The notes: a model not told the origin generated them from the sequence alone. A DNA stretch of 64,000 nucleotides from Bdellovibrionales bacterium (GCA_965262715.1 OZ253553.1:864001-928000); one strand, 5' to 3'; positions 9,085 through 62,316 are shown, counted from the stretch's first letter. Numbers and translations are program-made.

Positions 9085-12000
9085 ATGAAAAAAATAATGA
9101 AATTCTTTAGGGTTATAAAAAAACGAAACATAAAAAAGCATTTTTTGTTAAGTTTTAATAATGCCTTTTATCTACTTCTATTGGCTTCACTTTTCTTGTT
9201 ATTAGCTTTTCAAAACTGCGGTTCAAATGTAAGTCAAGCTCCTAACCTGTTTTCTGAACAAACGGTATCTAATGATAAAGGTTATATTATTGCTTATTTA
9301 CCATCAGAAGATGAAAGCATCTCGATAGAAGATTATTTCCTAATTGATAGTGATGTGAAACTAAAGGTTATGAATAGTCATTCTGATTCTGAAGATTTTA
9401 AATGGAAAATCACTAGAGCCTTTGAAACTATTACTGATGGAGAAGAGACAACAACTGAACCAGAATACCAACATAAATTCGAACAATATGGAAGTTACGA
9501 TATTTTTGCTACATCTTATAAAAGCTCTGATTTGTTAACCGTGGCCAGTAAAAGACTTGTGATTGGTGAGGAATGCTCATTAACAGATGTCTTAGAGATA
9601 TTTCTTGAAAGCGGTTCTTTGACTGTTGGACAGACTGCCACTTTTGAATTAAAGAATGCTATAGATTTTTCGAACATCTTATGGAAGGTCACATTACCTT
9701 CTTCAACTGAGGAGACAAACGAAGATGATAGTGAAAGTATTGAATTAGACTTTACCAATGAATCTGCTGGTTCTGTTACTATTGAGGTGTCTGCAGAAGA
9801 TCCTGACAATTCTGATTGCCTCACCTATCGAAAACAAGTTTTGCAAGTGAGCTCTAATTCTAAACCTCATTTTAATCCAATAATTATTAAACATAATGAT
9901 GAAGAAATTGCTGTGATGTTAGAAAGTAATAACATTTATAAGTATTTAAGACCTGAAGGTGGAACTTGGACATTACATACAAATATTCAAAATGCTAATC
10001 AATGTGAACTTCAAATTGATAGTGGCAGTGAGGATGTACTAAATTGCAGTGATGGTGTAATAGACATCACTTCAACTGAAGTCTGTGTAAAAAGTACTAT
10101 AGCAATACAAGCTTCAACCTCTTCTTCTACCACTATAGATAGTCAAACTTCGGCAGATGATATAGTTGAACAGTTTTATTATAATTACTGTCCATCAGAT
10201 GGCAGCTATTGTTATTTTTCCGGACCTTTACCTGGTCCATTAAGTTATCAGACCTGTGACAATTCTATATTAGGCCAAGCTGTTACACGCAATCCATCTT
10301 CAATCGTAAATGGAGAATGTAATAACTCCGTCAAAAATGGTTGTATTCAAGGTACTTTAAATGACATAGATGATTCAGAAACTCATTATCAGTGGCAGTG
10401 TTTAGGTACCAACGATGGCACTGATGCTACAGGTTGCTGCAGTATGGCCATTGATACAGCAGCACCAATAAATGGTGTTTGCGGCGATGACACCATCAGA
10501 AATGGTTGTACTGCTGGGACTCCAGACGACGGCGCAATAGCTGATACAAGTACTCATTATACATGGCATTGTGTTGGCTCAAATGGTGGTGCAACAGCAA
10601 GTTGTACAAAAGCTATACCTCCTGTCAACGGCGTTTGTAATAACAGTCAACAAAATGGTTGTTCTTCGGGCACAGCAAATGATGCAGCTATAGCCGATAC
10701 AAACACTCATTATACATGGCACTGTGAAGGTTCAAATGGAGGCAGCACTGCTACAAATTGTCAAAAAGCAAAATCTGCACCAGTAAACGGCGTTTGTAAT
10801 AACAGTCAACAAAATGGTTGTTCTTCGGGCACAGCAAATGATGCAGCTATAGCCGATACAAACACTCATTATACATGGCACTGTGAAGGTTCAAATGGAG
10901 GCAGCACTGCTACAAATTGTCAAAAAGCAAAATCTGCACCAGTAAACGGTGTTTGTAATAATAATCAAAGAAATAGCTGTTCTTCGGGCACTGCAAACGA
11001 TGGCGCAATAGCCGATACAAATACACATTATACATGGCACTGCGTAGGTGCAAATGGAGGCACTACTGCTACAAATTGTCAAAAAGAGAAACCTGTTAAC
11101 GGTGCTTGTAATAATGCTCAAAGAAATGGCTGTTCTTCGGGCACTGCAAACGATGGCGCAATAGCTGATACAAATACACATTATACATGGCATTGTGTAG
11201 GTGCAAATGGCGGCACTACTGCTACAAACTGTCAAAAGGCAAAACCTGTTAAAGGTATTTGTAATAACAGTCAACAAAATGGTTGTTCTTCCGGCACAGC
11301 AAATGACTCAGCTATAACCGATACAAATACTCATTATACATGGCACTGTGTGGGTAAAAATGGAGGCAGTACTGCTACAAATTGTCAAAAGGCGAAACCT
11401 GCATCAGTAAACGGTGTTTGTAATAACAGTCAGCGAAATGGCTGCTCTGCTGGCAGAGCAAACGACGCCGTAATAGTCGATACAAATACACATTATACAT
11501 GGCACTGTGAAGGTTCAAATGGCGGCACTACAGCACAAAGTTGTCAAAAACTAATGCCTATCCATGGCGTTTGTGATAACAGTAAACAAAATAGCTGCTC
11601 TTCCGGCACTCCAAACGACGGCGTTATTGCAGATACAAATACACATTATACATGGTACTGCATAGGTGCAAATGGCGGCACTACTGCTATAGATTGTCAA
11701 AAGCTGATACCTATCGATGCCGTTTGTGATCAAAGCCAAAGAAATGGTTGCTCTGCTGGGACTGCAAAGGCATTGCCAGATAATACACATTCCACCCTTT
11801 ATCTATGGACTTGTGAAGGTTTGCATGGAGGTGGAAATCAAAGTTGTACTAGATTAAAAAGTATCATCGAAGGAGTTTGTGATAACAGCCAACGAAATGG
11901 CTGCAGCTCTGGGACTCCAGACGATGGCGCAATAAATGATACAGATACACATTATACATGGCTCTGTATGGGTGCAAATGGCGGCGCTACTGCTACAAAT

Positions 12001-12171
12001 TGTCAGATACAGAAAACACCTATCAATGGTTCTTGTAATCTGGGGCAAAGGAATGGTTGCTATTCGGGCACTCCAAAGGCACAGCCAGATGATGAGATAA
12101 ATAACTCTTATGTATGGCTTTGTGAAGGTTCAAATGGCGGCAAAACAGCAAGATGTTTCAAACGAAGATAA
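9085..12171 (+). CDS. Large Cys-rich tandem-repeat surface lipoprotein
   Basis: Hydrophobic signal ending LAFQNC; acidic beta-rich N-terminal region; 12 repeats of about 50 aa with 4 Cys. The exact start is uncertain. Confidence 0.85.
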   Translation: MKKIMKFFRVIKKRNIKKHFLLSFNNAFYLLLLASLFLLLAFQNCGSNVSQAPNLFSEQTVSNDKGYIIAYLPSEDESISIEDYFLIDSDVKLKVMNSHSDSEDFKWKITRAFETITDGEETTTEPEYQHKFEQYGSYDIFATSYKSSDLLTVASKRLVIGEECSLTDVLEIFLESGSLTVGQTATFELKNAIDFSNILWKVTLPSSTEETNEDDSESIELDFTNESAGSVTIEVSAEDPDNSDCLTYRKQVLQVSSNSKPHFNPIIIKHNDEEIAVMLESNNIYKYLRPEGGTWTLHTNIQNANQCELQIDSGSEDVLNCSDGVIDITSTEVCVKSTIAIQASTSSSTTIDSQTSADDIVEQFYYNYCPSDGSYCYFSGPLPGPLSYQTCDNSILGQAVTRNPSSIVNGECNNSVKNGCIQGTLNDIDDSETHYQWQCLGTNDGTDATGCCSMAIDTAAPINGVCGDDTIRNGCTAGTPDDGAIADTSTHYTWHCVGSNGGATASCTKAIPPVNGVCNNSQQNGCSSGTANDAAIADTNTHYTWHCEGSNGGSTATNCQKAKSAPVNGVCNNSQQNGCSSGTANDAAIADTNTHYTWHCEGSNGGSTATNCQKAKSAPVNGVCNNNQRNSCSSGTANDGAIADTNTHYTWHCVGANGGTTATNCQKEKPVNGACNNAQRNGCSSGTANDGAIADTNTHYTWHCVGANGGTTATNCQKAKPVKGICNNSQQNGCSSGTANDSAITDTNTHYTWHCVGKNGGSTATNCQKAKPASVNGVCNNSQRNGCSAGRANDAVIVDTNTHYTWHCEGSNGGTTAQSCQKLMPIHGVCDNSKQNSCSSGTPNDGVIADTNTHYTWYCIGANGGTTAIDCQKLIPIDAVCDQSQRNGCSAGTAKALPDNTHSTLYLWTCEGLHGGGNQSCTRLKSIIEGVCDNSQRNGCSSGTPDDGAINDTDTHYTWLCMGANGGATATNCQIQKTPINGSCNLGQRNGCYSGTPKAQPDDEINNSYVWLCEGSNGGKTARCFKRR
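10306..12160 (+). repeat. 12 coding tandem repeats (VNGxC..NGC..GT...HYTWxCxGxNGG...C)
   Basis: Units 3 and 4 form an exact 159-bp tandem (10627-10949); outer units are more diverged. Confidence 0.92.
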
Positions 12172-12734: not shown

Positions 12735-14051
12735 GGTCTTGTTGCACAAAGATTTAAATAGTTTTTATTTTATTTATTTTTTAAGTAAGATTGTTACTTA
12801 ATATTTTTTTATCAAGCTGAAAGAGAAGAAGGCACAATCATCTGATTAAGGATTTTACATTTAATAAACACTTCATTTGCTTGACGATGAAATTCTCTAG
12901 AAGATAATTTATCACCTAATAAAGTTTTAAATCTATACATAGCTGTTTCTGATATAGACCTCCTGTGATATTTATGTTTTTTTTTCCACTTCTTTCTACC
13001 CATCTTCTTGATTTCTCTAATATAAGTATCTCTAAGAAGCGGCGATCCCCGACAATTTCCATGCCTCTTAATCACAGCATTCTTTCTAGGTGGAGCAACC
13101 AATTTTATACTTCTATCACTTGTAAACTGATAACAATTCTTACAGTCATAAGCCCCATCAACTGAAACTTGGCCTATCTCATCTTCATATCCTGTCAATA
13201 ACTCTTCAAAAACCTCATTATCCTTTACAGAATTATCACTTAAAACAGATGCCTTAATCTGGGAATTTGACTCATCTACCGCTAAATGTAGCTTCTTCCA
13301 TGTCCTTCTCTTAGAATACCCATGCTGACGGACTTTCCACTCTCCCTCCCCATAAACTTTAAGACCTGTGGAATCAATGACAATATGAGGATTCTTGTGA
13401 GAAGATAGCTTTCTTTCTAGTTTTACTGATAACTTCTGTAATCTTCTGCAAAGAGTTGTATAATTAGGTATTTCTATATCAAGACCCATAAGTTCAACTA
13501 GGGATTTAGCAAAACCTTCTGTAGATCGCAATTTTAAACCAAATATGAATCTTAATATATTAAGAGTTTCAATAGCTTTATCAGAGTAAACTTGTTGACC
13601 CCCTTGCTTTGAAGAACATTTTGCATACCAAGATTTGACGATATCTGCTGAAAACCAAAAAGTGATTTGACCTCTATTGACTAGAGACTTATTATAAAGA
13701 CTCCAGTTTATTTTTTTATTTTTACCCATCTCTAGCTCCTTCTGATTTAGTGATTGTGAAAGTTGGGGATGGGTAAATTTTATAATCATTAAAAACAAAA
13801 AATCAAAGTAATAGATATATCAAACTCATAAAAGATCTTATTGCATAAAAATTTAAGAATGAGATTTGTGAAAGACTTCTGAAATAGGACTAGGCTAGCG
13901 GCTTAGGGTAAATATCTCTTAAACTATTTTATTCTATAATAAAATCTTAAAATAATAGCAATACAAGGCACGGGGGCCCTCTAAGGACTATGGAAGATGC
14001 CTTTCACAAATCTCTGGCTTATAAACTAAATGATGTTTGTGCAACAAGGCC
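12735..14051 (-). mobile_element. IS5 family, IS903 group, copy 1 (1317 bp)
   Basis: TIR ggtcttgttgcacaaa / tttgtgcaacaaggcc; 9-bp TSD ttggaatat (12726-12734, 14052-14060). Confidence 0.95.
12812..13729 (-). CDS. IS903-group transposase (305 aa from MGKNKK)
   Basis: NWSLYNKSLVNRG, IDSTGLKVYGEGEW, RRTWKKLHLAVD, DGAYD, YHRRSISET; RBS aaggag before this ATG. Confidence 0.93.
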   Translation of the reverse strand: MGKNKKINWSLYNKSLVNRGQITFWFSADIVKSWYAKCSSKQGGQQVYSDKAIETLNILRFIFGLKLRSTEGFAKSLVELMGLDIEIPNYTTLCRRLQKLSVKLERKLSSHKNPHIVIDSTGLKVYGEGEWKVRQHGYSKRRTWKKLHLAVDESNSQIKASVLSDNSVKDNEVFEELLTGYEDEIGQVSVDGAYDCKNCYQFTSDRSIKLVAPPRKNAVIKRHGNCRGSPLLRDTYIREIKKMGRKKWKKKHKYHRRSISETAMYRFKTLLGDKLSSREFHRQANEVFIKCKILNQMIVPSSLSA

Positions 14052-39400: not shown

Positions 39401-40506
39401 TCAATATCTAGTGATGTTTGAAAAAAGAGGTCCTCATCGAAGTGAATCACTGTTTGTTCAAAATCTATACGATTCGCTTGATTTATTACTGCAAGTTTTT
39501 TAGATACAAATTGGTCATTCTGAAGGGAGCCTTCTAGTTCAACTTTTCCAAAATAAAATCGTTTAAACCGAAGTCTTTGAGCAGCTGTTTTAAGTTTGAC
39601 ATTTAAGTTTCTGTTTTTCTTCTTTATAAAATGAGCTGAAACATCTAAGGTTCCATTTATTTGTTTTAATTGCTCATTTGGATAGAAAGGTAATATCCAG
39701 TTTTGCGCTGTTTTTAAATTAAAATGAGAACGCCAATGGAATTGGTATTCTCTCTGACAATCATTCAATCTTTTTTGAAATGAACAATGTCCGCTAAAAA
39801 AGTGTAAGTAGTCAGAATGCTTTGCCATATACAAGCTAGAAACAAATAAATCATCTCTACTGATTTGTAAATTTGTTTTGAATTCCCAGTTAGACTCCAT
39901 TTTAGACATATCTTCTGTTTGGTAAGCAAAATTTGGGCTTTTAATAAATAAAGACCATTTTTCATTATCATAACTTAGTCTTAAAAAAAGATCTTTCCAC
40001 TGAATAAATCTTTTTAGATGGTGTATCTTGAGCTGTGTTTTTTCAATGACAATGGAAGAAATTGGTAAGTCTAAATATTTAAAGAAAGTTTCTTTATCTA
40101 AATCTAAAGACATAGAGCCAGATTTACTTTTGTTACTAAATATCTTAGAAGCTTGATGATGTCCAACATCAAATGTAAGACTTGTTTCTTGAACTCTTAA
40201 CTCTTTTATTAAAAAATAACCCGAAAAAAAAGCAGGAATATTTAAGGAAACATTTAACTTTTTAACTTTAAAGTCAGGTAGATGACGTTTCAGTTCCTTT
40301 TGAGTCTTAATTTCAATGTTATATAAACTGATACTTAAAGGGAAAATATTGAAATCAATATCTTGGGGTATAATATGTAATTTTTGATTTTTGGTTTCTG
40401 TGATGATTTGATGCTTTAACCAATCTTTAACATTTTTTTGATGGTAAGATATAACAAACCCCAAAAGCCCAAAAAATATCAATAAAAGAAAGTAAAAATA
40501 TTTCAA
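36493..40506 (-). CDS. tamB: TamB/AsmA-family protein
   Basis: 1337-aa beta-rich protein with N-terminal anchor; C-terminal FESNPALPERDIINLIALG and LKYEIEFK; coupled to the Omp85 gene. Confidence 0.8.
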   Translation of the reverse strand: MKYFYFLLLIFFGLLGFVISYHQKNVKDWLKHQIITETKNQKLHIIPQDIDFNIFPLSISLYNIEIKTQKELKRHLPDFKVKKLNVSLNIPAFFSGYFLIKELRVQETSLTFDVGHHQASKIFSNKSKSGSMSLDLDKETFFKYLDLPISSIVIEKTQLKIHHLKRFIQWKDLFLRLSYDNEKWSLFIKSPNFAYQTEDMSKMESNWEFKTNLQISRDDLFVSSLYMAKHSDYLHFFSGHCSFQKRLNDCQREYQFHWRSHFNLKTAQNWILPFYPNEQLKQINGTLDVSAHFIKKKNRNLNVKLKTAAQRLRFKRFYFGKVELEGSLQNDQFVSKKLAVINQANRIDFEQTVIHFDEDLFFQTSLDIDSLELDKLLANFQVKVPYLKLNVRGKLPCEGHFLPEVQIHCQSENIELSDFVIHKPKSEKRIVAFQSGKIEGEMSIDKYQVTINSNLTIGKTKGVVNGHVNYKSGFLFNFSTPQFNFLDIESLSELKIEGSTALEGSTKGTSQFATISMNLKAKDIWFENYGVGHFESLLEYKKSILSFKKTSGIFGNTEYQGKLDIDLSSSKINAQLNSDHLELSDLRQLIKRKYFFPLEVQALGKVDLKVWGPLKFNRLSYDMNIDTQRGTISKESFDKLIFHIRSRDGEFETKQVEVHKGLGRAFVSSGVGHPNGQIDIQVKGSRFYLVDSEFLRNFGYNILGQNNFNISLQGHIFTPEIKLTGQIEGFRISDVPISMPRYDIEWSSEGVYVNTVLENQTLSLETLIPLNSRSPLFIKLSMNKWDFSPAFALFKQEDLIEEYETSISGKIDISSLSDWIWQADGFIQLDEFILQRGQSDLYLRKPSSIQFENGKMNISDLILTGNNTQFKIEAKDSQKNNLNLSFNGKIDTYMMAFLTPFLEELRGALELNYDLRGSTNRLQMMGSAYIRDGYAKMKEFPHPFENLKIEVLFSEKDIILTDFYTDLTTGNVTANGRVTIEGWKNFPTKISAKARDIQLHIPDNVVTRGNGQIEITRSWFPFLFKGNYTIDTARVEKELEDEENNSSIRYSNLLPESLLKKRFSSIEWDILTFFRSNAYVSNSFIEGNFFGDLRLLGPINNPYFLGEIHFKKDSILKFRDTPFRITKASLRFPNRQEIDPIISLVASAQVKEYDVNISIQGTSKDHMMHFESNPALPERDIINLIALGFTSEEQEDLSSEEQVGQQALNYIGIGKVLKDKTGLEMNFSSTRDASEDFEDRPKVTVRKQWGSQLSTSISRRLGSNADSDPSNLDPVRESPTSDVKIEYQLDDNLSVLGMWENRERHSTKSGSQADSSDVDIETENVLGLDLKYEIEFK

Positions 40507-41732
40507 TTTTTAATAAGCTCCTTCCATTTTGATAATATCAAATCAGCGCAGCGAAAGTGAGGTTTTTGTTTTACAATTTCAGACATAAGTTCAATAGCTT
40601 CATGGTTTTTGTTCAGTCCCCATAAAGCTTTTGCTTTAAAGTAGATAAGGGATAAGATAATATCTGGATCTTCATTCATGTATTGTTTCAGCATTTTATC
40701 TACATGTTCTAAGAGTTCTAAGTAATATTTATGAGCAGAGTAAAGTTCTAGTTTTAAGGAGTCAGAATATTTATTATTTGAATTTTTTCTGGAAGACTTT
40801 GAGGATATGAAGTATTTATCATATTGCTCTAAAGATTGAAGTGTTTCTTCATAAACTCCCATCATAAAAAGGCTCACAGCTAAATCATAAGCATAGTAAG
40901 GTTGTGTTCTAGCTTGTACAAGAAATGAAGGTAAAACTTCCTTTTTTGCTTTTTTTAACACACTTTGAAATTCATCTTCTACTTGTTGGAAGATGCGATG
41001 GATTAAAAATTCTTCCTTAAGTCGAAGTCCTAACTCTATCTGAGTCTTATTTTGAGATATATTTTTTACTTTCTCATTCTCATCTATTTCTTCATCTTCA
41101 TACTTTTCATTAGTTGTGACTTGGGCACCCATTTGAGTGTCTTGTAACTCTTCTTGTACATTATTTATAGTTTTTATATCAGTGATTTGGTTGGTTTTGT
41201 CATAGGCTTGGTCGTTATAATACGTGTCAGTTATATTTACCTGTAAGGTTTTTGCTTGAGAGATTTGAGAGGCTGTCATCTCTGAGGCAACCTTTTTTCT
41301 AGATATACCACCCCAAAGTTCTGTTAGATGAGATTGGACATCCTTCAATTGGTCAGTCCAATTGTTTTCAATATGAGCATCTAAAAGGCTCTCATTATGA
41401 CACATAAAGGATAAAAGTTGTAATTGGCGTATTTCTTCTAATCCAAAAAAAAATAAATCTACAACTTCTTGATCTATGTAGCTATCAAATTTTTTTAACA
41501 CGTAACCAATATCTTGCCATGGAATTTCTTGATATTTTAGTAAACGTTGAGCTACATGGTCACATAGGCTTGCATAAAATCTGCACTGAATAAGAAATTG
41601 AGCGATTGCATGAGCATTGCTATCATTATGCTGGATAGAAGACCAGCGTCGGATAAGAGTATCGGCAATAAATGTTTCTTCCGTCTCAGAAAGCAACATA
41701 TCTTGAATTTCAATCTCTATTTGATTATCCAC
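40503..41732 (-). CDS. Hypothetical protein with C-terminal TPR-like helices
   Basis: Long ORF coupled to tamB; YFKAKALWGL...AIELM. Confidence 0.7.
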   Translation of the reverse strand: MDNQIEIEIQDMLLSETEETFIADTLIRRWSSIQHNDSNAHAIAQFLIQCRFYASLCDHVAQRLLKYQEIPWQDIGYVLKKFDSYIDQEVVDLFFFGLEEIRQLQLLSFMCHNESLLDAHIENNWTDQLKDVQSHLTELWGGISRKKVASEMTASQISQAKTLQVNITDTYYNDQAYDKTNQITDIKTINNVQEELQDTQMGAQVTTNEKYEDEEIDENEKVKNISQNKTQIELGLRLKEEFLIHRIFQQVEDEFQSVLKKAKKEVLPSFLVQARTQPYYAYDLAVSLFMMGVYEETLQSLEQYDKYFISSKSSRKNSNNKYSDSLKLELYSAHKYYLELLEHVDKMLKQYMNEDPDIILSLIYFKAKALWGLNKNHEAIELMSEIVKQKPHFRCADLILSKWKELIKN

Positions 41733-42052
41733 AATCTCTCCAATCTAATAAAAATGCTAAATATTCATGATATTAAAAAAGTTGTAAAGTACTCCAAATT
41801 GCCTTATTTATAGTAAATAGAAAGTATTTTTAATATCGTCTTTAAACATAAGCCTCTATACTTTATTTTAACCAAGTAATACCCAAAAGTGAACCAATAG
41901 TTATTACAAGGTGCAAAATATCTATTTAAATCTAAAGTAGTATTTTCTCATTCTTTGATTTAATCCTGTTACCACTCTATACTTGACTTATTCTAAAAAC
42001 TAGATCACCTATAACAGTTCATAAAAAAAATGAAACAACCGATTTATTAAGT

Positions 42053-43000
42053 ATGGGGTATTTTAAAAAAAGAAAATCATTTTTTTTCTATTTATCTTTG
42101 TCATTGTTTTTTCATGGGTTTTTTGTTTATTTGATTTACTTAACTCCACAATATAAAACTCCAAAACCAGATAGATCCCCTGCATCCTTGATTGCAGTGA
42201 CTATTATGGACAATAAAAACAAGGATCCTCTTAAAGAGAATGCTGCAAAGCAAATTGTAGAGCAAAACCCAGATCTAAGCTATATTCAAAAGTCACCTAA
42301 CAAAAATGCAAAATTTTTAAGTAAGTATCATCAAAAAGTACTTAAAGAAACCGCCTCTAAAAATCCCATCTCTGTAAATAAAGACTCCTCTTTAAAAAAC
42401 ATCCCCAGAAGTGAATTAACACAAAAAGCATCAAAACAAGAGACAGCTATCAATTCTCAAAAAGAAGGTTTATTGCCAAACCTATCTGTGGCCGATCTTA
42501 TACCAAAAACAGACTGGAATCAATATATGAATGTCAAAAAAACAGACACTCAGAAAAAATTATCAGAAAATACTATTAACTTTGAGGATCAAGTCAGTTT
42601 AGGGTTTCAATCCAACGATTATTTGAAGGATATAGAGGAAGGACAGCAAACCTTATTAAATACTAGAGCTTTTAAATTTTATACTTATTATAGTCGGATC
42701 AAACAGCAAGTACAGGCATCATGGAAGTTAATGATAAAAAAAGAAGTAAGAAAACTCTTACTTCAGCAAAGGGAAAGTATTTTAGGAGCTGAACAGAAAA
42801 CAAGTCTGCTTATTACTCTTGATCGTTTTGGAGCTTTAGTGAGTGTTCAAGTCTTAAAAAAATCACATCTTGCTACTTTAGATCATATCGCTGTAAAAAG
42901 CTTCCAACTTACAGCTCCTTTTCCGCATCCTCCAAAAAGCCTTATAGGGGAAAAAGAATTCCTTCAAATTCGTTGGGATTTTATTTTGGAAAATGTATAA
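42053..43000 (+). CDS. TonB C-terminal domain protein (intact copy)
   Basis: N-terminal TM with S...H motif; LLNT..FK.YTYYSRIK; LD..AV..F....PFP.PP. Confidence 0.85.
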   Translation: MGYFKKRKSFFFYLSLSLFFHGFFVYLIYLTPQYKTPKPDRSPASLIAVTIMDNKNKDPLKENAAKQIVEQNPDLSYIQKSPNKNAKFLSKYHQKVLKETASKNPISVNKDSSLKNIPRSELTQKASKQETAINSQKEGLLPNLSVADLIPKTDWNQYMNVKKTDTQKKLSENTINFEDQVSLGFQSNDYLKDIEEGQQTLLNTRAFKFYTYYSRIKQQVQASWKLMIKKEVRKLLLQQRESILGAEQKTSLLITLDRFGALVSVQVLKKSHLATLDHIAVKSFQLTAPFPHPPKSLIGEKEFLQIRWDFILENV

Positions 43001-43021
43001 AGAATGCTTTTTCTTGAAGTA

Positions 43022-43711
43022 TCAATAGGCTCCGGATTGAATCAGGAGAAACTTTTTATATAAGATCACTGCCGCCCAAACAAATGAAAGACAAATAAAA
43101 AAAATTCCTAAATAACCTACAAAAAAGGCTATTTTATCATGGTACTGCATGCTATCAAACTTTGTTAAAAGATAGTGCCAATCATGAACATCTGGATTTT
43201 CCTGTCCTATTATTCCTCCAAGTAGAGGCAGTTTTTTATCCCATGCATCATAAATGTAAGGGGCAACGTCTAAAAAGTTGTACCCAATCCACCACAAGCC
43301 AACTGAAGCTCCAAAATTATCTCTCTGCCTCAAAAACTGAATCATGACAGCCGAGGGCATAAGGCATTGCATAAGACTTCCTCCAAAGGCATGCATGGTA
43401 TTTCCTAGAGGTCTAAAAATCCAATGTCCTGCTTCATGGAAGATCAAATTGACATTATGGAGGAAGTAGTCCGTCATGGAATTATTATAAGGGTCTTTAT
43501 TAAAATCTATCTCGTCAAAAAAGCTAGTACCTATAAAAAACAAGGCGATGTAGAGTAAACAGTGAAAAGAAAAAGCAAGAGAACCAACTTCTCTCTCTTC
43601 TACAAAGAATACCCAATTAAAAAAGCTTTGAATAAAGCTCTCTTGTTTTTTAAAAACCTCTTGTTTCTTAAGAGCAGGTGTTATTTTGTATATTCTTCGT
43701 CTTAATGCCAC
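43022..43711 (-). CDS. Membrane HExxH protein (M50-like), duplicate copy 1
   Basis: FHEAGH, HDWHYLL; translation identical to 46605-47294. Confidence 0.75.
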   Translation of the reverse strand: MALRRRIYKITPALKKQEVFKKQESFIQSFFNWVFFVEEREVGSLAFSFHCLLYIALFFIGTSFFDEIDFNKDPYNNSMTDYFLHNVNLIFHEAGHWIFRPLGNTMHAFGGSLMQCLMPSAVMIQFLRQRDNFGASVGLWWIGYNFLDVAPYIYDAWDKKLPLLGGIIGQENPDVHDWHYLLTKFDSMQYHDKIAFFVGYLGIFFICLSFVWAAVILYKKFLLIQSGAY

Positions 43712-44237
43712 GGTTGTATGGGGCCATGTGTTACTATAACTTCAGGTTGACTAAATAATTTTTGTGATAAATCCAAAATTTGTTGAGTTGTCACTTCATT
43801 GATATGATCGGCATAACTAAAGACTTCTTTATAAGAAATATTATAGATTTCACGGAAGAAAATAGCTGAGCTTAAGGAAGAGTTTTTTTGAAGTGCTATA
43901 TTATAGTGACCTATAAGGTATTTCTTAGCTCTCTCTAATTCTTCTTCTGAGACGAGATGGGTACAAAGTTTTTGAATTTCTATTTTCATCATATCAATTG
44001 CTAATTTTCCTTTATCTGGCTGGCAAGCAATGTAAATAGCAAAAAAACCTGCTTCCTTCCCCATTAGAGAAAAAGGGGTAACCGTGTAAGCTAAAGATGC
44101 CTTATCTCTTAATTCTAAGAACAATCGGCCTGATTGACCTGAAAGAATAGCCTCTAGGACTTCAAGCGCAAATCGGTTTTTATCTCTAAAAGTTAAGCCT
44201 CTATAACCTAATACGATAGATGATTGAGCTTTATCCT
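43702..44237 (-). pseudogene. Duplicated 3' fragment of the M16 peptidase gene
   Basis: Identical to the end of 47285-49999 and cut at the IS end. Confidence 0.9.
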
Positions 44238-46157
44238 CCTGACTTCGACGGTTTAAACTTATAAGTTACTGGGATCATTGGATGATACATTACATCATAG
44301 GCACTACAATTGATTTTTAGTTATGTATTAAGTGTATTTTTATTCAATAAGATAAGGTGTTGTAGAGTGCTTAAGTCCCATAATCTGATAGATTTTCAGA
44401 GCTTCCTTACTTATATTTGAAGGTATAGAGTACTTTCTGTTATTGGTTTGATCTACTAATAAACTATGCTGTACATGGATTAAAGCATTTCGTATAACTT
44501 CCGGTGAACAGGATTGGTATTGTATCTTAATTCTGTAAGCTAAGTGTCTTATACAGACTAAACAGATAAAAGCAATGGCTATGTGTGCTTTGATCCGATC
44601 TGATGTCCAGTGAAATATAGGACGTATTTTTAAATCATGCTTAGCTATCCGGAATGTTTCTTCGACTTGCCATAACCCCTTATATTGGCTAATAATGTCT
44701 AAATCATCCATATCTTTGAGGTTTGTTATGACTCCAAACAAACCATCCCACTTTTGATCTTCTTTGACTCGATTTTCATTGACTGAAAGCTTTTGTTTCT
44801 TGCCTGTGACTTTTAAATACTTCTTATAACCGTAATTGTTTAATAAAGTCTTCACATCTTGAGCCTTTGAGAGTTTCTTAACTAAACTATCTATAGTTTG
44901 TTGACGATCATGTCGATCTTTCTCCGCTCTCTTATAAGAATAACAAACTATCACTTTCCTCTTATTATCTTTATCTTCTAATGATTGAATCTTGAAACCT
45001 TCTTGTTTACTGACAATTTTGTACTTTGACTTATCTAATACAAGCTCTTGTTTTACTTTTGGTAATTTCTTAAGCTTAGCTCCTACAATATAATGAAGAT
45101 TCTCATCTTCTAGTGCTTTTAAATTATCTTCACTTAACATTCCTCTATCAGCGACATAAATAGCTTGTTCTAAGTTATATTTAGACTTCATCTCTTTTAT
45201 CACTGGATTTAAGGTATGACCCTCGAAGATAGCACCCGGGAAAGTCTCGTAACTGACAGGAAAACCTTCTTTGGTCACAACGACTGCTAAACACACTTGA
45301 GATTCTTTAAACTTAGCATCTTTACTGTAACCTCTTTGTCTTAAATCATCTTCAATAATTGATTCAAAATACAGTGTCGTACAATCAAAAAACAAAACTT
45401 TCAAAGGCTCTTTAAAAACCTTTTGTGCCACTTGACCTGCCAGTCTCTTTATCTTATCTATCCTTTTGCTATCTAAACGATCCATCATGCGATAAATCTT
45501 CTCTAACGAAATATGAACTCCAAAATCCTCTTCTAAAAATCGACTGCTCTCTCTTTTACTTTGAGGATTAGCTATCCGAGCCATCACTGTATGAAATAAA
45601 ACCCAATGTGATGAATGATAACGACTCACTGGTAAAATGCGATCTAAACCTAATTCCTTGTACATAGCTCCATAAACCTCATGAATACCTACAATGACTC
45701 TTTGATCTTCCCTTAGTTTCTTAAGATCTACTTTTAAGGGTTTATTGCAATGACGAAACTTGGACTCAATCACTTGTTTAGAAATCTCTTCCGGAGCAAA
45801 AAAAGATAATTGATTTTCATTTGTTAGTTTAGCTTTGATGAATTCTCCAAGCTCTTGAAGACGAAATAGCTCATCCTCATCTTGAGCCACTCCGACATGA
45901 CGGATGATCTTTTGGCGAACTTTATTGCCATAACGGATAGAATCAACGATCTGAACTGACTGCCTTGGACTGTTTGGTGTGCTTTTGATTCTTACAAACA
46001 TAAAAATAATTTAATGCTTATTAAAAAAAAAGTCAAAATAAAAATAAAAATAATCTGACTTGGTGTGTTACTAGGCACTACATCGAAAACTTACTCCAAA
46101 ATCCTATAACCATCAATGTTACAAAATCAATACCGAACATAAACCGTCGAAGTCAGG
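44238..46157 (-). mobile_element. IS1634-family element B, copy 1 (1920 bp)
   Basis: 18-bp perfect TIR cctgacttcgacggttta. Confidence 0.95.
44340..46001 (-). CDS. IS1634 transposase (553 aa)
   Basis: FDCTTLYFE, GYSKD, VADRGM, LWQVEETFR..K..L..RPIFHW. Confidence 0.95.
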   Translation of the reverse strand: MFVRIKSTPNSPRQSVQIVDSIRYGNKVRQKIIRHVGVAQDEDELFRLQELGEFIKAKLTNENQLSFFAPEEISKQVIESKFRHCNKPLKVDLKKLREDQRVIVGIHEVYGAMYKELGLDRILPVSRYHSSHWVLFHTVMARIANPQSKRESSRFLEEDFGVHISLEKIYRMMDRLDSKRIDKIKRLAGQVAQKVFKEPLKVLFFDCTTLYFESIIEDDLRQRGYSKDAKFKESQVCLAVVVTKEGFPVSYETFPGAIFEGHTLNPVIKEMKSKYNLEQAIYVADRGMLSEDNLKALEDENLHYIVGAKLKKLPKVKQELVLDKSKYKIVSKQEGFKIQSLEDKDNKRKVIVCYSYKRAEKDRHDRQQTIDSLVKKLSKAQDVKTLLNNYGYKKYLKVTGKKQKLSVNENRVKEDQKWDGLFGVITNLKDMDDLDIISQYKGLWQVEETFRIAKHDLKIRPIFHWTSDRIKAHIAIAFICLVCIRHLAYRIKIQYQSCSPEVIRNALIHVQHSLLVDQTNNRKYSIPSNISKEALKIYQIMGLKHSTTPYLIE

Positions 46158-46583
46158 ATTAACTTTGAGGATCAAGTCAGTTTAGGGTTTCAATCCAACG
46201 ATTATTTGAAGGATATAGAGGAAGGACAGCAAACCTTATTAAATACTAGAGCTTTTAAATTTTATACTTATTATAGTCGGATCAAACAGCAAGTACAGGC
46301 ATCATGGAAGTTAATGATAAAAAAAGAAGTAAGAAAACTCTTACTTCAGCAAAGGGAAAGTATTTTAGGAGCTGAACAGAAAACAAGTCTGCTTATTACT
46401 CTTGATCGTTTTGGAGCTTTAGTGAGTGTTCAAGTCTTAAAAAAATCACATCTTGCTACTTTAGATCATATCGCTGTAAAAAGCTTCCAACTTACAGCTC
46501 CTTTTCCGCATCCTCCAAAAAGCCTTATAGGGGAAAAAGAATTCCTTCAAATTCGTTGGGATTTTATTTTGGAAAATGTATAA
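46158..46583 (+). pseudogene. Duplicated 3' fragment of the TonB-domain gene
   Basis: Identical to 42575-43000; lacks the N-terminal anchor. Confidence 0.88.
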
Positions 46584-46604
46584 AGAATGCTTTTTCTTGA
46601 AGTA

Positions 46605-47294
46605 TCAATAGGCTCCGGATTGAATCAGGAGAAACTTTTTATATAAGATCACTGCCGCCCAAACAAATGAAAGACAAATAAAAAAAATTCCTAAATAACC
46701 TACAAAAAAGGCTATTTTATCATGGTACTGCATGCTATCAAACTTTGTTAAAAGATAGTGCCAATCATGAACATCTGGATTTTCCTGTCCTATTATTCCT
46801 CCAAGTAGAGGCAGTTTTTTATCCCATGCATCATAAATGTAAGGGGCAACGTCTAAAAAGTTGTACCCAATCCACCACAAGCCAACTGAAGCTCCAAAAT
46901 TATCTCTCTGCCTCAAAAACTGAATCATGACAGCCGAGGGCATAAGGCATTGCATAAGACTTCCTCCAAAGGCATGCATGGTATTTCCTAGAGGTCTAAA
47001 AATCCAATGTCCTGCTTCATGGAAGATCAAATTGACATTATGGAGGAAGTAGTCCGTCATGGAATTATTATAAGGGTCTTTATTAAAATCTATCTCGTCA
47101 AAAAAGCTAGTACCTATAAAAAACAAGGCGATGTAGAGTAAACAGTGAAAAGAAAAAGCAAGAGAACCAACTTCTCTCTCTTCTACAAAGAATACCCAAT
47201 TAAAAAAGCTTTGAATAAAGCTCTCTTGTTTTTTAAAAACCTCTTGTTTCTTAAGAGCAGGTGTTATTTTGTATATTCTTCGTCTTAATGCCAC
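46605..47294 (-). CDS. Membrane HExxH protein (M50-like), duplicate copy 2
   Basis: As copy 1; GTG start overlaps the M16 stop. Confidence 0.75.
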   Translation of the reverse strand: MALRRRIYKITPALKKQEVFKKQESFIQSFFNWVFFVEEREVGSLAFSFHCLLYIALFFIGTSFFDEIDFNKDPYNNSMTDYFLHNVNLIFHEAGHWIFRPLGNTMHAFGGSLMQCLMPSAVMIQFLRQRDNFGASVGLWWIGYNFLDVAPYIYDAWDKKLPLLGGIIGQENPDVHDWHYLLTKFDSMQYHDKIAFFVGYLGIFFICLSFVWAAVILYKKFLLIQSGAY

Positions 47295-49999
47295 GGTTGT
47301 ATGGGGCCATGTGTTACTATAACTTCAGGTTGACTAAATAATTTTTGTGATAAATCCAAAATTTGTTGAGTTGTCACTTCATTGATATGATCGGCATAAC
47401 TAAAGACTTCTTTATAAGAAATATTATAGATTTCACGGAAGAAAATAGCTGAGCTTAAGGAAGAGTTTTTTTGAAGTGCTATATTATAGTGACCTATAAG
47501 GTATTTCTTAGCTCTCTCTAATTCTTCTTCTGAGACGAGATGGGTACAAAGTTTTTGAATTTCTATTTTCATCATATCAATTGCTAATTTTCCTTTATCT
47601 GGCTGGCAAGCAATGTAAATAGCAAAAAAACCTGCTTCCTTCCCCATTAGAGAAAAAGGGGTAACCGTGTAAGCTAAAGATGCCTTATCTCTTAATTCTA
47701 AGAACAATCGGCCTGATTGACCTGAAAGAATAGCCTCTAGGACTTCAAGCGCAAATCGGTTTTTATCTCTAAAAGTTAAGCCTCTATAACCTAATACGAT
47801 AGATGATTGAGCTTTATCCTTCATCTCATAGAAATAAGTTATTCCCTGAGTCAGTGGTTTTAATAAAGGATAAGGTGTATCTGAGAATTTGCTAAAAGAA
47901 AAGGACTCTATCAGATTTGTAAAAGTTTCTTGTATTTGCTCAAAATCGCAATCTCCAACAATAGATATGACCATTCTTTGAGGGTTCATTACCTTTTTCC
48001 AATAAGAAAGCAAGTCTTCTTGATGGACAATATCCAATGAATCGTTTGTGCCAAGCGGGTCTTTTGCATAAGGATGCCCTTTAAACAATATCTCTTTAAA
48101 AGATCTTATGGTCATCTTTAGAGGAGAGTCTTTGCGTTGAGCCAGCTTTTCTTTCATGGCCATTTTCTCCCTTTCTATAATTTCTTTTAAGAAGAGAGGT
48201 GACTTCAATACACTTTTTAAAAGAATTAAGCTTTGATCTAAAGAAGATGAAAGAGTTGTTAAACTCAAACCCAATGTATGTCTTCCTGAAAAAGCACTTA
48301 AAAAAGAGGCTAATTCATCAAGTTTTTGTTTTAGAAGACCTTCTGGATATTCAGAGGTGCCACAGGACCAAGACCTTCTAGTTAACTCAGAAATACCAAT
48401 AAATGCATCTGGCTCCACAATAGCTCCACCACCTTCAAAGCCTAAATCCAAACTCACAGTAGGTGTTTGAGTGGATTTGTAAACATACATTCTAGCACCT
48501 AATGGCAATTTTATTTCTTTTATCTCTGGCAAGGGTTTTTGTGAGACTTTTGGTGTGACTTTCTTCAAGTCATCATTATGGGCTTTATGATTTAGTGATG
48601 AAAAAAATTCTTTTTCATAGTGTTCAGCCCAATTTTCTAACTTAGTTTTAAGACTTTCTTGAGGGGTATTTTTGGTCATTACACAAAGTGACATATTTTC
48701 AGGAGATAAATATTTTTTAGTAACGTCAATAATATCTTTAATTTTTAACTGGTCAAGCTGGTTAAGGTGCTTTTTCCAACAATCAGGATCGTTCCATAGA
48801 GTTTCATAAAAGCCATATTTTTCTGAAAGGCCATCAACTGTTTCCATGTCATAATATTGATCGCTTTTTATCATGGTGATAGCTTTTTGAAGTTCCTTTA
48901 AAGGTGGATTTTTGGTAAAAAAAGATAACAATTCTTTTGCGAGGCTCTCAAGAGTGATATCGATCTTATCTTCAGAAAGCTGGCAAGAGATAATAAAAAC
49001 TCCACTATCTCTAAGGACATAGGTGTAAGAGCTTACAGAATTGACATAAAGGTTTTGCATTCTTAGTTCTTTATATAATCGAGAACTGTGACCTTGTCCC
49101 ATTATCACAGAAAGGGCTTCCAAAGCTGGTAAGTCATTCCGAAATGAAGATAATCTCCATGCTAAATGGATATGTGCTTCTTCAAATGAGGTTTTTTGAA
49201 CACCAATATTTTTTACTTTTTGAAAGTGAGTAACTTTTTTTTGTAAAGATGTGTGTTTTTTTAAAGCATTAAAGTAATGGTGAATGGAAGATTTAATTTG
49301 AGAAGCTTGAAAGTCACCTGAAATAACAAGAGTCATATTTTGAGGATAATAGTGATCTTGATAGTATTTTTTAATTTGCTCTGGAGTAAAATTTTTAATA
49401 TTCTCCTCATAACCTAAAATAGGATGTCCATAAGGATGTTTAGGATAAATTTTAGAGAAAAGGAGATCAGCTGATTGGCTGTGGGGGTTGTCTTTTGCTC
49501 TTTTTATCTCTTCAATAACAACCTGTCTCTCATCATCAATACTTTTTGCATTAAATTTAGGAAAAATAATCATTTGGCTTAAAGCATCGAAGGCTATTTG
49601 AGTGTAATGACTTGCAATTGTGATATAAAAAACAGTGTGGTCAAAGGAGGTGTAGGCATTAAGCCCTCCTCCTGCTGCTTCAATGAGATTTGCAACTTCT
49701 CCTACCTGGAACTTATCTGTTTCTTTAAAGAGAAGATGCTCAATAAAATGAGTTATACCCTCCTGTCCTCTTTGCTCATCTACGCTACCTGTTTTGACCC
49801 AAATTTGAGCAGATATAACAGGCGATTTGTGGCTCTCAATTAAAAGCACATTTAGGTTATTTGAGAGTTGATATTTTTCATGAGTTAAATTATAAGGATT
49901 TATGCCATCTTCTTTAAAATTTTCTAGCAACGGTGAAGCTGAATATCTTGATAGTTCACCTTCTTTACCTCTTGCAAATGATTGTTTTGGCTTATACAT
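47285..49999 (-). CDS. M16-family zinc peptidase (intact copy; true start probably downstream of 49999)
   Basis: HFIEH (HxxEH), NAYTSFD, ERQVVIEE; two-lobed M16 architecture. Confidence 0.92.
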   Translation of the reverse strand: MYKPKQSFARGKEGELSRYSASPLLENFKEDGINPYNLTHEKYQLSNNLNVLLIESHKSPVISAQIWVKTGSVDEQRGQEGITHFIEHLLFKETDKFQVGEVANLIEAAGGGLNAYTSFDHTVFYITIASHYTQIAFDALSQMIIFPKFNAKSIDDERQVVIEEIKRAKDNPHSQSADLLFSKIYPKHPYGHPILGYEENIKNFTPEQIKKYYQDHYYPQNMTLVISGDFQASQIKSSIHHYFNALKKHTSLQKKVTHFQKVKNIGVQKTSFEEAHIHLAWRLSSFRNDLPALEALSVIMGQGHSSRLYKELRMQNLYVNSVSSYTYVLRDSGVFIISCQLSEDKIDITLESLAKELLSFFTKNPPLKELQKAITMIKSDQYYDMETVDGLSEKYGFYETLWNDPDCWKKHLNQLDQLKIKDIIDVTKKYLSPENMSLCVMTKNTPQESLKTKLENWAEHYEKEFFSSLNHKAHNDDLKKVTPKVSQKPLPEIKEIKLPLGARMYVYKSTQTPTVSLDLGFEGGGAIVEPDAFIGISELTRRSWSCGTSEYPEGLLKQKLDELASFLSAFSGRHTLGLSLTTLSSSLDQSLILLKSVLKSPLFLKEIIEREKMAMKEKLAQRKDSPLKMTIRSFKEILFKGHPYAKDPLGTNDSLDIVHQEDLLSYWKKVMNPQRMVISIVGDCDFEQIQETFTNLIESFSFSKFSDTPYPLLKPLTQGITYFYEMKDKAQSSIVLGYRGLTFRDKNRFALEVLEAILSGQSGRLFLELRDKASLAYTVTPFSLMGKEAGFFAIYIACQPDKGKLAIDMMKIEIQKLCTHLVSEEELERAKKYLIGHYNIALQKNSSLSSAIFFREIYNISYKEVFSYADHINEVTTQQILDLSQKLFSQPEVIVTHGPIQPWH

Positions 50000-55825: not shown

Positions 55826-57141
55826 GGCTTTGTTGCACAAAGATTTAAGGAAGTATATAAAAGATTAGAGAATTAAGTCAGGCATCTTCCATAGGCTCTA
55901 GGCAACCCCCGCGCCTTGTATTGCTATTATTTTAAGATTTTATTATAGAATAAAATAGTTTAAGAGATATTTACCCTAAGCCGCTAGCCTAGTCCTATTT
56001 CAGAAGTCTTTCACAAATCTCATTCTTAAATTTTTATGCAATAAGATCTTTTATGAGTTTGATATATCTATTACTTTGATTTTTTGTTTTTAATGATTAT
56101 AAAATTTACCCATCCCCAACTTTCACAATCACTAAATCAGAAGGAGCTAGAGATGGGTAAAAATAAAAAAATAAACTGGAGTCTTTATAATAAGTCTCTA
56201 GTCAATAGAGGTCAAATCACTTTTTGGTTTTCAGCAAATATCGTCAAATCTTGGTATGCAAAATGTTCTTCAAAGCAAGGGGGTCAACAAGTTTACTCTG
56301 ATAAAGCTATTGAAACTCTTAATATATTAAGATTCATATTTGGTTTAAAATTGCGATCTACAGAAGGTTTTGCTAAATCCCTAGTTGAACTTATGGGTCT
56401 TGATATAGAAATACCTAATTATACAACTCTTTGCAGAAGATTACAGAAGTTATCAGTAAAACTAGAAAGAAAGCTATCTTCTCACAAGAATCCTCATATT
56501 GTCATTGATTCCACAGGTCTTAAAGTTTATGGGGAGGGAGAGTGGAAAGTCCGTCAGCATGGGTATTCTAAGAGAAGGACATGGAAGAAGCTACATTTAG
56601 CGGTAGATGAGTCAAATTCCCAGATTAAGGCATCTGTTTTAAGTGATAATTCTGTAAAGGATAATGAGGTTTTTGAAGAGTTATTGACAGGATATGAAGA
56701 TGAGATAGGCCAAGTTTCAGTTGATGGGGCTTATGACTGTAAGAATTGTTATCAGTTTACAAGTGATAGAAGTATAAAATTGGTTGCTCCACCTAGAAAG
56801 AATGCTGTGATTAAGAGGCATGGAAATTGTCGAGGATCGCCGCTTCTTAGAGATACTTATATTAGAGAAATCAAGAAGATGGGTAGAAAGAAGTGGAAAA
56901 AAAAACATAAATATCACAGGAGGTCTATATCAGAAACAGCTATGTATAGATTTAAAACTTTATTAGGTGATAAATTATCTTCTAGAGAATTTCATCGTCA
57001 AGCAAATGAAGTGTTTATTAAATGTAAAATCCTTAATCAGATGATTGTGCCTTCTTCTCTTTGATAAAAAAATATTAAATGACAATCTTACTTAAAAAAT
57101 AAATAAAATAAAAACTATTTAAATCTTTGTGCAACAAGGCC
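55826..57141 (+). mobile_element. IS5 family, IS903 group, copy 2 (1316 bp)
   Basis: TIR ggctttgttgcacaaagattta / taaatctttgtgcaacaaggcc; 9-bp TSD tgtctatac (55817-55825, 57142-57150). Confidence 0.95.
56153..57064 (+). CDS. IS903-group transposase (303 aa)
   Basis: Near-identical to copy 1, differing by one D/N change and 2 aa at the C-terminus. Confidence 0.93.
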   Translation: MGKNKKINWSLYNKSLVNRGQITFWFSANIVKSWYAKCSSKQGGQQVYSDKAIETLNILRFIFGLKLRSTEGFAKSLVELMGLDIEIPNYTTLCRRLQKLSVKLERKLSSHKNPHIVIDSTGLKVYGEGEWKVRQHGYSKRRTWKKLHLAVDESNSQIKASVLSDNSVKDNEVFEELLTGYEDEIGQVSVDGAYDCKNCYQFTSDRSIKLVAPPRKNAVIKRHGNCRGSPLLRDTYIREIKKMGRKKWKKKHKYHRRSISETAMYRFKTLLGDKLSSREFHRQANEVFIKCKILNQMIVPSSL

Positions 57142-59816: not shown

Positions 59817-60106
59817 AATAAAGCTTATTATTGTGCTGTTGTCGTCGCTGCTGCTACTGATAATGGTCTCGCTTCTGAATAAGGGCCTACTATAATAGTA
59901 TCTGCATCAATAACTACACGAATGCGAACTCTCCAATAATAGGTTCCATCATTAAGCGTATTTGCAAGAGTGAAACTTTTTGATGGATTTGCTAAATCTG
60001 AAATATCTATAGTGCCTGTTGCTTCAATACTGCTAAACGCTTGATCAGAAGCAAGTTGAAATTCATATTGAATGCTATAGACGCTAATAAGAGTAGTGAG
60101 GATAGT
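59817..60106 (+). repeat. 290-bp direct target duplication, left copy (orphan 3' end of the lipoprotein gene)
   Basis: aataaagctt...gaggatagt, repeated at 62027-62316. Confidence 0.95.
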
Positions 60107-62026
60107 CCTGACTTCGACGGTTTATGTTCGGTATTGATTTTGTAACATTGATGGTTATAGGATTTTGGAGTAAGTTTTCGATGTAGTGCCTAGTAACACA
60201 CCAAGTCAGATTATTTTTATTTTTATTTTGACTTTTTTTTTAATAAGCATTAAATTATTTTTATGTTTGTAAGAATCAAAAGCACACCAAACAGTCCAAG
60301 GCAGTCAGTTCAGATCGTTGATTCTATCCGTTATGGCAATAAAGTTCGCCAAAAGATCATCCGTCATGTCGGAGTGGCTCAAGATGAGGATGAGCTATTT
60401 CGTCTTCAAGAGCTTGGAGAATTCATCAAAGCTAAACTAACAAATGAAAATCAATTATCTTTTTTTGCTCCGGAAGAGATTTCTAAACAAGTGATTGAGT
60501 CCAAGTTTCGTCATTGCAATAAACCCTTAAAAGTAGATCTTAAGAAACTAAGGGAAGATCAAAGAGTCATTGTAGGTATTCATGAGGTTTATGGAGCTAT
60601 GTACAAGGAATTAGGTTTAGATCGCATTTTACCAGTGAGTCGTTATCATTCATCACATTGGGTTTTATTTCATACAGTGATGGCTCGGATAGCTAATCCT
60701 CAAAGTAAAAGAGAGAGCAGTCGATTTTTAGAAGAGGATTTTGGAGTTCATATTTCGTTAGAGAAGATTTATCGCATGATGGATCGTTTAGATAGCAAAA
60801 GGATAGATAAGATAAAGAGACTGGCAGGTCAAGTGGCACAAAAGGTTTTTAAAGAGCCTTTGAAAGTTTTGTTTTTTGATTGTACGACACTGTATTTTGA
60901 ATCAATTATTGAAGATGATTTAAGACAAAGAGGTTACAGTAAAGATGCTAAGTTTAAAGAATCTCAAGTGTGTTTAGCAGTCGTTGTGACCAAAGAAGGT
61001 TTTCCTGTCAGTTACGAGACTTTCCCGGGTGCTATCTTCGAGGGTCATACCTTAAATCCAGTGATAAAAGAGATGAAGTCTAAATATAACTTAGAACAAG
61101 CTATTTATGTCGCTGATAGAGGAATGTTAAGTGAAGATAATTTAAAAGCACTAGAAGATGAGAATCTTCATTATATTGTAGGAGCTAAGCTTAAGAAATT
61201 ACCAAAAGTAAAACAAGAGCTTGTATTAGATAAGTCAAAGTACAAAATTGTCAGTAAACAAGAAGGTTTCAAGATTCAATCATTAGAAGATAAAGATAAT
61301 AAGAGGAAAGTGATAGTTTGTTATTCTTATAAGAGAGCGGAGAAAGATCGACATGATCGTCAACAAACTATAGATAGTTTAGTTAAGAAACTCTCAAAGG
61401 CTCAAGATGTGAAGACTTTATTAAACAATTACGGTTATAAGAAGTATTTAAAAGTCACAGGCAAGAAACAAAAGCTTTCAGTCAATGAAAATCGAGTCAA
61501 AGAAGATCAAAAGTGGGATGGTTTGTTTGGAGTCATAACAAACCTCAAAGATATGGATGATTTAGACATTATTAGCCAATATAAGGGGTTATGGCAAGTC
61601 GAAGAAACATTCCGGATAGCTAAGCATGATTTAAAAATACGTCCTATATTTCACTGGACATCAGATCGGATCAAAGCACACATAGCCATTGCTTTTATCT
61701 GTTTAGTCTGTATAAGACACTTAGCTTACAGAATTAAGATACAATACCAATCCTGTTCACCGGAAGTTATACGAAATGCTTTAATCCATGTACAGCATAG
61801 TTTATTAGTAGATCAAACCAATAACAGAAAGTACTCTATACCTTCAAATATAAGTAAGGAAGCTCTGAAAATCTATCAGATTATGGGACTTAAGCACTCT
61901 ACAACACCTTATCTTATTGAATAAAAATACACTTAATACATAACTAAAAATCAATTGTAGTGCCTATGATGTAATGTATCATCCAATGATCCCAGTAACT
62001 TATAAGTTTAAACCGTCGAAGTCAGG
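60107..62026 (+). mobile_element. IS1634-family element B, copy 2 (1920 bp)
   Basis: Same 18-bp TIRs and same length as 44238-46157, opposite orientation. Confidence 0.95.
60263..61924 (+). CDS. IS1634 transposase (553 aa)
   Basis: Translation identical to 44340-46001. Confidence 0.95.
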   Translation: MFVRIKSTPNSPRQSVQIVDSIRYGNKVRQKIIRHVGVAQDEDELFRLQELGEFIKAKLTNENQLSFFAPEEISKQVIESKFRHCNKPLKVDLKKLREDQRVIVGIHEVYGAMYKELGLDRILPVSRYHSSHWVLFHTVMARIANPQSKRESSRFLEEDFGVHISLEKIYRMMDRLDSKRIDKIKRLAGQVAQKVFKEPLKVLFFDCTTLYFESIIEDDLRQRGYSKDAKFKESQVCLAVVVTKEGFPVSYETFPGAIFEGHTLNPVIKEMKSKYNLEQAIYVADRGMLSEDNLKALEDENLHYIVGAKLKKLPKVKQELVLDKSKYKIVSKQEGFKIQSLEDKDNKRKVIVCYSYKRAEKDRHDRQQTIDSLVKKLSKAQDVKTLLNNYGYKKYLKVTGKKQKLSVNENRVKEDQKWDGLFGVITNLKDMDDLDIISQYKGLWQVEETFRIAKHDLKIRPIFHWTSDRIKAHIAIAFICLVCIRHLAYRIKIQYQSCSPEVIRNALIHVQHSLLVDQTNNRKYSIPSNISKEALKIYQIMGLKHSTTPYLIE

Positions 62027-62316
62027 AATAAAGCTTATTATTGTGCTGTTGTCGTCGCTGCTGCTACTGATAATGGTCTCGCTTCTGAATAAGGGCCTAC
62101 TATAATAGTATCTGCATCAATAACTACACGAATGCGAACTCTCCAATAATAGGTTCCATCATTAAGCGTATTTGCAAGAGTGAAACTTTTTGATGGATTT
62201 GCTAAATCTGAAATATCTATAGTGCCTGTTGCTTCAATACTGCTAAACGCTTGATCAGAAGCAAGTTGAAATTCATATTGAATGCTATAGACGCTAATAA
62301 GAGTAGTGAGGATAGT
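62027..62316 (+). repeat. 290-bp direct target duplication, right copy
   Basis: Copy of 59817-60106. Confidence 0.95.

Follow-up and report, generated by a model that had tools for sequence, protein, structure and literature searches.

Insertion site and family membership of the element

The window—the whole stretch of 64,000 nt analyzed here, from the closed genome of a Bdellovibrionales bacterium (GCA_965262715.1, OZ253553.1:864001-928000; termed G000, a single 2.94-Mb contig)—contains an IS1634-family element surrounded by the genes of a TonB C-terminal-domain protein, a 229-residue membrane protein and an M16 peptidase (Table 1). The element lies between two direct repeats of 1663 bp, which differ at 0 positions and whose identity extends 0 bases beyond either side. 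The 1920 bp between them start and finish with a perfect 18-bp inverted repeat, and both terminal inverted repeats (TIRs) touch the direct repeats directly; the gapless arrangement described in the initial annotation therefore proved exact. The outer borders of the repeats (42574 and 47821) lack both an IS end and any short repeat left behind, so that the IS copies that mark the edges of an IS-bounded duplication are absent from this site. Likewise, neither the repeat nor its two flanks occur a further time in G000.

The ORF coordinates also bear out the earlier claim that the repeats copy the complete HExxH-containing gene together with the 3' parts of the TonB-domain and M16 genes. Because the repeat spans the junction between convergent genes, the TonB-domain and M16 genes are both whole and keep their native upstream DNA, and all three genes are whole in a reconstructed allele without the IS and one repeat copy. 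Judged from these reading frames, the net effect of the insertion would be to leave every native gene whole and one gene doubled. The 229-residue product carries its HExxH motif at residue 92 and displays two hydrophobic peaks; a Pfam comparison returned no match, and the nearest named Atlas cluster is M50B-like (score 0.76), which serves as a lead only.

Table 1. Features of the insertion site and of the second element copy in the window
Feature	Position	Strand	Remarks
TonB C-terminal-domain gene (PF13103), 315 aa	42053..43000	+	Whole through copy 1; native upstream region kept
Direct repeat copy 1 (1663 bp)	42575..44237		First base A, in codon 175 of the TonB-domain gene
229-aa membrane protein gene with HExxH, extra copy	43022..43711	-	Downstream of M16 stub and transposase
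M16 peptidase gene, 3' stub	43702..44237	-	In-frame stop just within the IS end; no fusion
IS1634-family element, 1920 bp	44238..46157	-	9 full copies in genome
18-bp TIR, transposase 3' end	44238..44255
DDE transposase gene, 553 aa	44340..46001	-	NF033559, 381.8 bits (cut-off 100)
18-bp TIR, transposase 5' end	46140..46157
Direct repeat copy 2 (1663 bp)	46158..47820		Last base T (A on minus strand), in codon 727 of the M16 gene
TonB-domain gene, 3' stub	46158..46583	+	In-frame stop just within the IS end; no fusion
229-aa gene, copy in native place	46605..47294	-	Behind the whole M16 gene
M16 peptidase gene (PF00675/PF05193), 904 aa	47285..49999	-	Whole through copy 2
Second IS copy, 100% identical	60107-62026		Orientation opposite to 44238-46157; perfect 290-bp repeat 59817-60106 / 62027-62316

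The assignment to IS1634, made from the sequence at the outset, is upheld by the family model, whose cut-off the transposase exceeds by a wide margin (Table 1). Residues D206, D285 and E447 are invariant in an alignment with 48 relatives and are read here as the probable DDE triad. An alignment-based structure model of the transposase (pLDDT 80.8; a single-sequence fold, at pLDDT 33, was unusable) had the Tn5 transposase as its closest solved fold, with a Foldseek E value of 2e-10, a TM score of 0.42-0.50 and 12% identity. The predicted model thus resembles the Tn5/IS50 transposase of the IS4 superfamily more than any other structure, whereas IS50-type elements give fixed repeats of 8-9 bp (PMC2266710). 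No extra domain accounting for a long stagger was apparent in the model—a monomer, which could not show such a feature.

Several traits of the element agree with the description of the IS1634 family in PMC2266710. A single ORF of 553 codons within 1920 bp falls inside the family range of one ORF in 1500-2000 bp; both IS ends, with C at position 1 and TT at positions 7-8, fit the end consensus C-----YT; and the YREK region reads Y440, L443, E447 and K454, i.e., with the arginine missing, as is usual in this family. A single long DDE transposase without the YREK arginine is also found in short-repeat members of the family, which have repeats of 5-6 bp (PMC2266710), such as ISGka5 of Geobacillus kaustophilus with its 6-bp repeat (PMC8024623). 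Unlike these, no two-ended copy in G000 carries a 5-6 bp repeat: the AT-rich target duplication of that length typical of IS1634 members is replaced by repeats of 87-1663 bp at 9/9 copies of the window element. The founders of the family depart from the 5-6 bp rule as well (PMC2266710), and it is these that the element resembles most. IS1634 and IS1549 have long, variable direct repeats adjoining the TIRs, of 8-514 bp, for which, according to PMC2266710, no mechanistic model had been put forward; the present element shares with them the family (by HMM), a similar size and long variable repeats at nearly every copy, and differs in repeats of up to 1663 and 1666 bp, >3x the published 514-bp maximum, that copy whole genes. 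No IS1634 target duplication >514 bp was found in the literature searched, although subscription papers and IS databases may list longer cases. On this sequence evidence, the element is best classified as an IS1634-family member of the long-repeat type.

Some IS1634 transposases bind the beta clamp, for which a C-terminal Q-L-x-L-F-like motif served as the criterion (PMC4549789). None occurs in the last 14 residues of the transposase, and a candidate at residue 64 (QLSFF) was rejected as poorly conserved, with the loose pattern present at residues 40-90 in 12/65 sequences.

Repeat lengths and target base across the family

A transposase search of G000 matched 39 loci, of which seven without an end detectable by motif search were excluded; the other 32/39 comprise 33 two-ended elements, including a nested one. 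Abutting repeats of 38-1666 bp were found at 30/33, one further element has a 327-bp repeat into which 1.4 kb was later inserted, and the last two are embedded in degenerate tandem repeats. The genome-wide measurement invited by the initial annotation thus yielded long repeats at 31/33 elements. The window element itself is present in 9 full, near-identical copies, seven with abutting repeats of 87, 233, 238, 290, 294, 337 and 1663 bp and two nested, with repeats of 244 bp (7 mismatches) and 345 bp. Within this set the 1663-bp repeat stands apart as an outlier (log z 4.4), the others measuring 87-345 bp. G000 nevertheless has five repeats >1 kb (1182, 1340, 1593, 1663 and 1666 bp), which stem from four element types with transposase identities to that of the window element down to 30%, and its repeat lengths leave a gap between 345 and 576 bp. 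When 64 lengths were pooled, a single log-normal component described them best (BIC 193 vs 201), with a median of 237.5 bp and 15/64 values >514 bp. Rather than being a special event, the 1663-bp case lies in the tail of a continuous, family-wide distribution, and a 1666-bp repeat exists in the same genome. By comparison, no abutting repeat exceeds 9 bp in four other dispersed IS-like families of G000 (22, 9, 10 and 11 copies); three repeat groups that are not clean IS families were omitted from this control.

The family model scored above its cut-off in 14/151 genomes of the order. Outside G000, 31 elements with abutting repeats of 31-1406 bp were recorded (loci L010-L163), with long repeats in other assemblies reaching 1406 bp in G077 and 877 bp in G004; the 19 repeats of the G077 set (median 201 bp) do not differ in length from those of G000 (P 0.34). 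A long repeat is not present at every copy of the family. Eleven copies elsewhere, with flanks >1.3 kb, have no exact repeat; two of them have gapped ones (759 and 978 bp), eight have none that we could find (five of the eight were re-examined with 20-kb flanks), and the last, in G112, is a candidate for a far larger event. There, the contig continues for 1371 bases on the right side of one IS before it ends, and these bases correspond to a site that starts 5887 bp upstream at an A. The remainder of the second 5.9-kb copy is absent from the assembly, and this putative multi-gene repeat stands as an unproven candidate. Among six plasmid loci, two have long repeats—680 bp around an element with the same ends in the isolate plasmid NZ_CP099557.1, and at least 414 bp at a locus whose TIRs were not located—and four have no scoreable repeat; most metagenome loci were too short to score. 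An empty site in related genomes, to which the initial annotation had looked, was sought in 40 relatives and found in no close one: the 229-aa gene occurs in 4/40, and in the three that were checked (G001, G003 and G004) it is a single-copy gene in a non-syntenic position.

At 111/122 repeat ends overall, both window borders included, the IS 3' end is joined to an A, with 55/60 ends in G000 (binomial P 3e-21) and 56/62 in other genomes; the six repeats >=1 kb have it at 10/12 ends. This A belongs to the target, because it is also present in the distal copy. An A at position +5 (36/60 in G000) is weaker elsewhere (27/62), and only +1 is claimed. Helical phasing could not be detected in 61 repeat lengths (empirical P 0.20-0.47 for periods of 9.5-12 bp), nor was there an orientation bias relative to the fork in G000 (15 co-directional and 15 head-on), in agreement with PMC3971601. 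A template asymmetry was considered and dropped: the lagging template holds 5/5 non-A borders of G000 (a post hoc comparison, Fisher P 0.052, with the local skew unclear at two of the five), but only 1/3 of those in the G077 set. Promoter seeking was discarded too, as 6/58 borders fall within 120 nt upstream of a start vs 5.4 expected, and -10-like motifs number 20 vs 18.3. Both borders of the 1663-bp repeat lie deep inside coding sequence.

Origin of the 1663-bp repeat

The 1663-bp repeat is very probably a genuine target-site duplication from one recent insertion, with two strand transfers 1663 nt apart and the interval copied by the host. In this reading, the Tn5-like transposase would have linked the two 3' ends of the IS to opposite strands of the target, one at 42575 (top strand) and the second 1663 nt away, at the equivalent of position 44237 (bottom strand); host replication or strand displacement would then have copied what lay between the joints. 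The main evidence is the target A, by which both borders look like transposase joints. The repeat lengths measured across the genome strengthen the target-site duplication proposed in the initial annotation, while the one-step mechanism it attached to this event is read from sequence anatomy.

Public sequencing data bear on whether the locus is correctly assembled. Six public runs from three studies contain the stretch, and the contigs of four were compared with 40000-46157; the genome may derive from one of the samples sequenced in these runs. In run X6, one contig contains the IS end, the complete repeat and the right flank in succession; run X2, from another sample and study, has the left flank running into the repeat start, plus a 56-nt record that branches at the same point and whose first 26 letters appear to be the IS end. 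A contig of run X4 (same sample as X2) passes through the site unbroken and without the IS, as would result from an empty allele or from graph simplification, and run X1 derives from a diverged strain that gives no information on the window site. Across the contigs and records of the four runs compared, none covers both repeat copies, and the repeat-end-to-IS junction is absent among the records listed; this absence is weak evidence, since those records hold only few of the ~10 left junctions expected for any copy. An assembler that duplicated the repeat around the IS would account for the missing spanning read and junction and for the unbroken path of X4. Such an artefact is nonetheless highly improbable, given the IS-to-repeat junction in X6, the native left junction and branching record in X2, the absence of long repeats from other IS families of the same assembly, borders on the same target base as in short-repeat cases, and a recurrence of the pattern in independent assemblies and in an isolate plasmid.

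A route in several steps would begin with an ordinary insertion and its ~250-bp repeat, after which transposition (one-ended or between sister chromatids) or IS-IS recombination would yield a tandem duplication that has the IS at its junction and later loses the outer IS. It would fit the outlying length within the element type and the empty range between 345 and 576 bp in G000, and it has a parallel in Mycoplasma mycoides PG1, where IS1634 sits between two direct 13-kb copies of host genes that are unstable on passage, being gained and lost (PMC1798306). The PG1 repeats are, however, IS-flanked and only partly identical, whereas the copies here are identical and their outer borders carry neither an IS end nor a short residual repeat. 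In addition, no pair among the nine copies flanks a short shared segment in direct orientation, the repeats of the kilobase class share the A at their borders (10/12), and the pooled lengths favor one component—all of which makes the multi-step route improbable. Least credible of all is a tandem duplication formed by host recombination before the IS landed exactly on its junction: beyond the bare identity of the copies nothing specific speaks for it, the element makes a repeat of at least 87 bp at all nine sites and no second repeat exists at the window site, and five sites of one genome would each require such an exact landing.

How two joints could come to lie so far apart is a separate matter. 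For the target-site duplication favored here, we give roughly even credence to joints made sequentially on a target opened between them, either by displacement synthesis from the first nick or as the single-stranded gap present at a fork. Joining in this sequential manner would give products that are almost all duplications, with no helical phasing and with smooth lengths from 31 bp to >1.6 kb. The capture of a loop of duplex DNA, which we consider rather unlikely, ranks behind it because repeats of 31-50 bp and the lack of phasing poorly fit a rigid loop, and because duplications make up nearly all products in G000. Tests bearing directly on fork coupling (beta-clamp motif, orientation and template asymmetry) were negative or not replicated. 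Carried further, and only tentatively, sequential joining suggests a clade without a fixed target stagger, whose ends may be joined in turn on replication-opened DNA such that a single insertion could duplicate anything between 30 bp and several kb.

Consequences for host genes and for the family

By our own ORF calls on an IS-free version of G000, 6/29 insertions break a gene, vs 14.9 +/- 2.4 at random sites of the same length (P about 0.001) and 22.7 of 29 expected with 6-bp repeats. Simulated insertions disrupt a gene with a probability of 0.80 for a 6-bp repeat and of 0.08 for a 1663-bp repeat. Low gene breakage can reflect selection rather than targeting. Five repeats contain six whole ORFs, lgt and two ankyrin genes among them, and recombination between the 1663-bp repeats could restore the original allele exactly.

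To our knowledge, the target stagger in DDE transpososomes of solved structure is fixed and spans a few bases. The nine copies of one intact element in G000, nearly identical to each other, and the genome's roughly 30 scored events set constraints on any model of the long-repeat type, which must account for a 5'-A at either joint, for lengths without helical phasing, for insertion without orientation bias and for a tail >1.6 kb. Long repeats are a known trait of the family; what is new is their scale and the repeated duplication of whole genes, not their kind. Single events double whole genes, lgt included, and this mode of insertion reaches gene size and can spare neighboring genes. Duplications of kilobase size would escape both search tools geared to short target-site duplications and assemblers whose contigs break at such repeats. 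If a clade without a fixed stagger does exist, its members would represent a routine, one-step device for duplicating genes or operons—with insertions that are often harmless and exactly reversible.

Additional IS1634-type elements in the window

The window holds what is probably a third IS1634-type element, broken by another insertion: a perfect pair of direct repeats adjoins a 3.28-kb element, the ends of which (genome positions 869231 and 872506) fit the IS1634-type motif. This element was left out of the census of two-ended IS1634-type elements in G000, the genome holding the window. At a distance of 14 kb the focal IS has a second copy with 100% identity, possibly the product of a local hop. 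Two further repeat features were observed in the window—a pair of inverted IS-like copies and a tract of degenerate tandem repeats.

Locations of the repeat-associated features
Feature	Location	Repeat
Probable broken IS1634-type element	window 5042-8695 (repeats 5042-5230 and 8507-8695)	189 bp
Second focal IS copy	window 59817-62316	290 bp
IS1634-type element with lgt in its repeat	G000, 1.70 Mb (locus L189:1151-6290)	1593 bp
Nested focal IS pair	G000:C1:2903764-2907847	244 bp (inner), 345 bp (outer)
Candidate long repeat	genome G112:C2 (locus L164:10819-19961)	5887 bp
Plasmid IS1634-family element	NZ_CP099557.1 (locus L183:3206-6302)	680 bp
IS-like element, 1.3 kb, two inverted copies (97% identical)	window 12735-14051 and 55826-57141
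Degenerate tandem repeats	window 10300-12160	period ~155 bp

Long repeats in related genomes and a plasmid

The candidate repeat in the related genome G112 encloses approximately seven ORFs, and the contig end cuts it after 1371 bp. In the isolate plasmid, the repeat on both sides of the element duplicates a portion of the gene for a Crp/Fnr regulator, and the annotation lists this gene twice. End motifs lacking a full element were numerous in the related genomes G001 and G077 (52 and 77 pattern matches, respectively), and some of them occur in MITE-like pairs a few hundred bases apart.

Repeat lengths across the host genome

Elsewhere in G000, the repeat around another IS1634 type doubles the whole of lgt; this insertion sits in a co-oriented gene run in which every gene is still intact. 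The focal IS is also found nested within its own copy, with seven mismatches in the inner repeat and none in the outer one. GC skew in G000 runs opposite to the surrounding replichore at 1.6-1.8 Mb and ~2.3 Mb, which suggests inversions. The three longest repeats of IS1634-type elements genome-wide lie close together in length (1593, 1663 and 1666 bp), and no such repeat between 1.67 and 20 kb was detected in G000—a grouping that reflects either chance or a ceiling.
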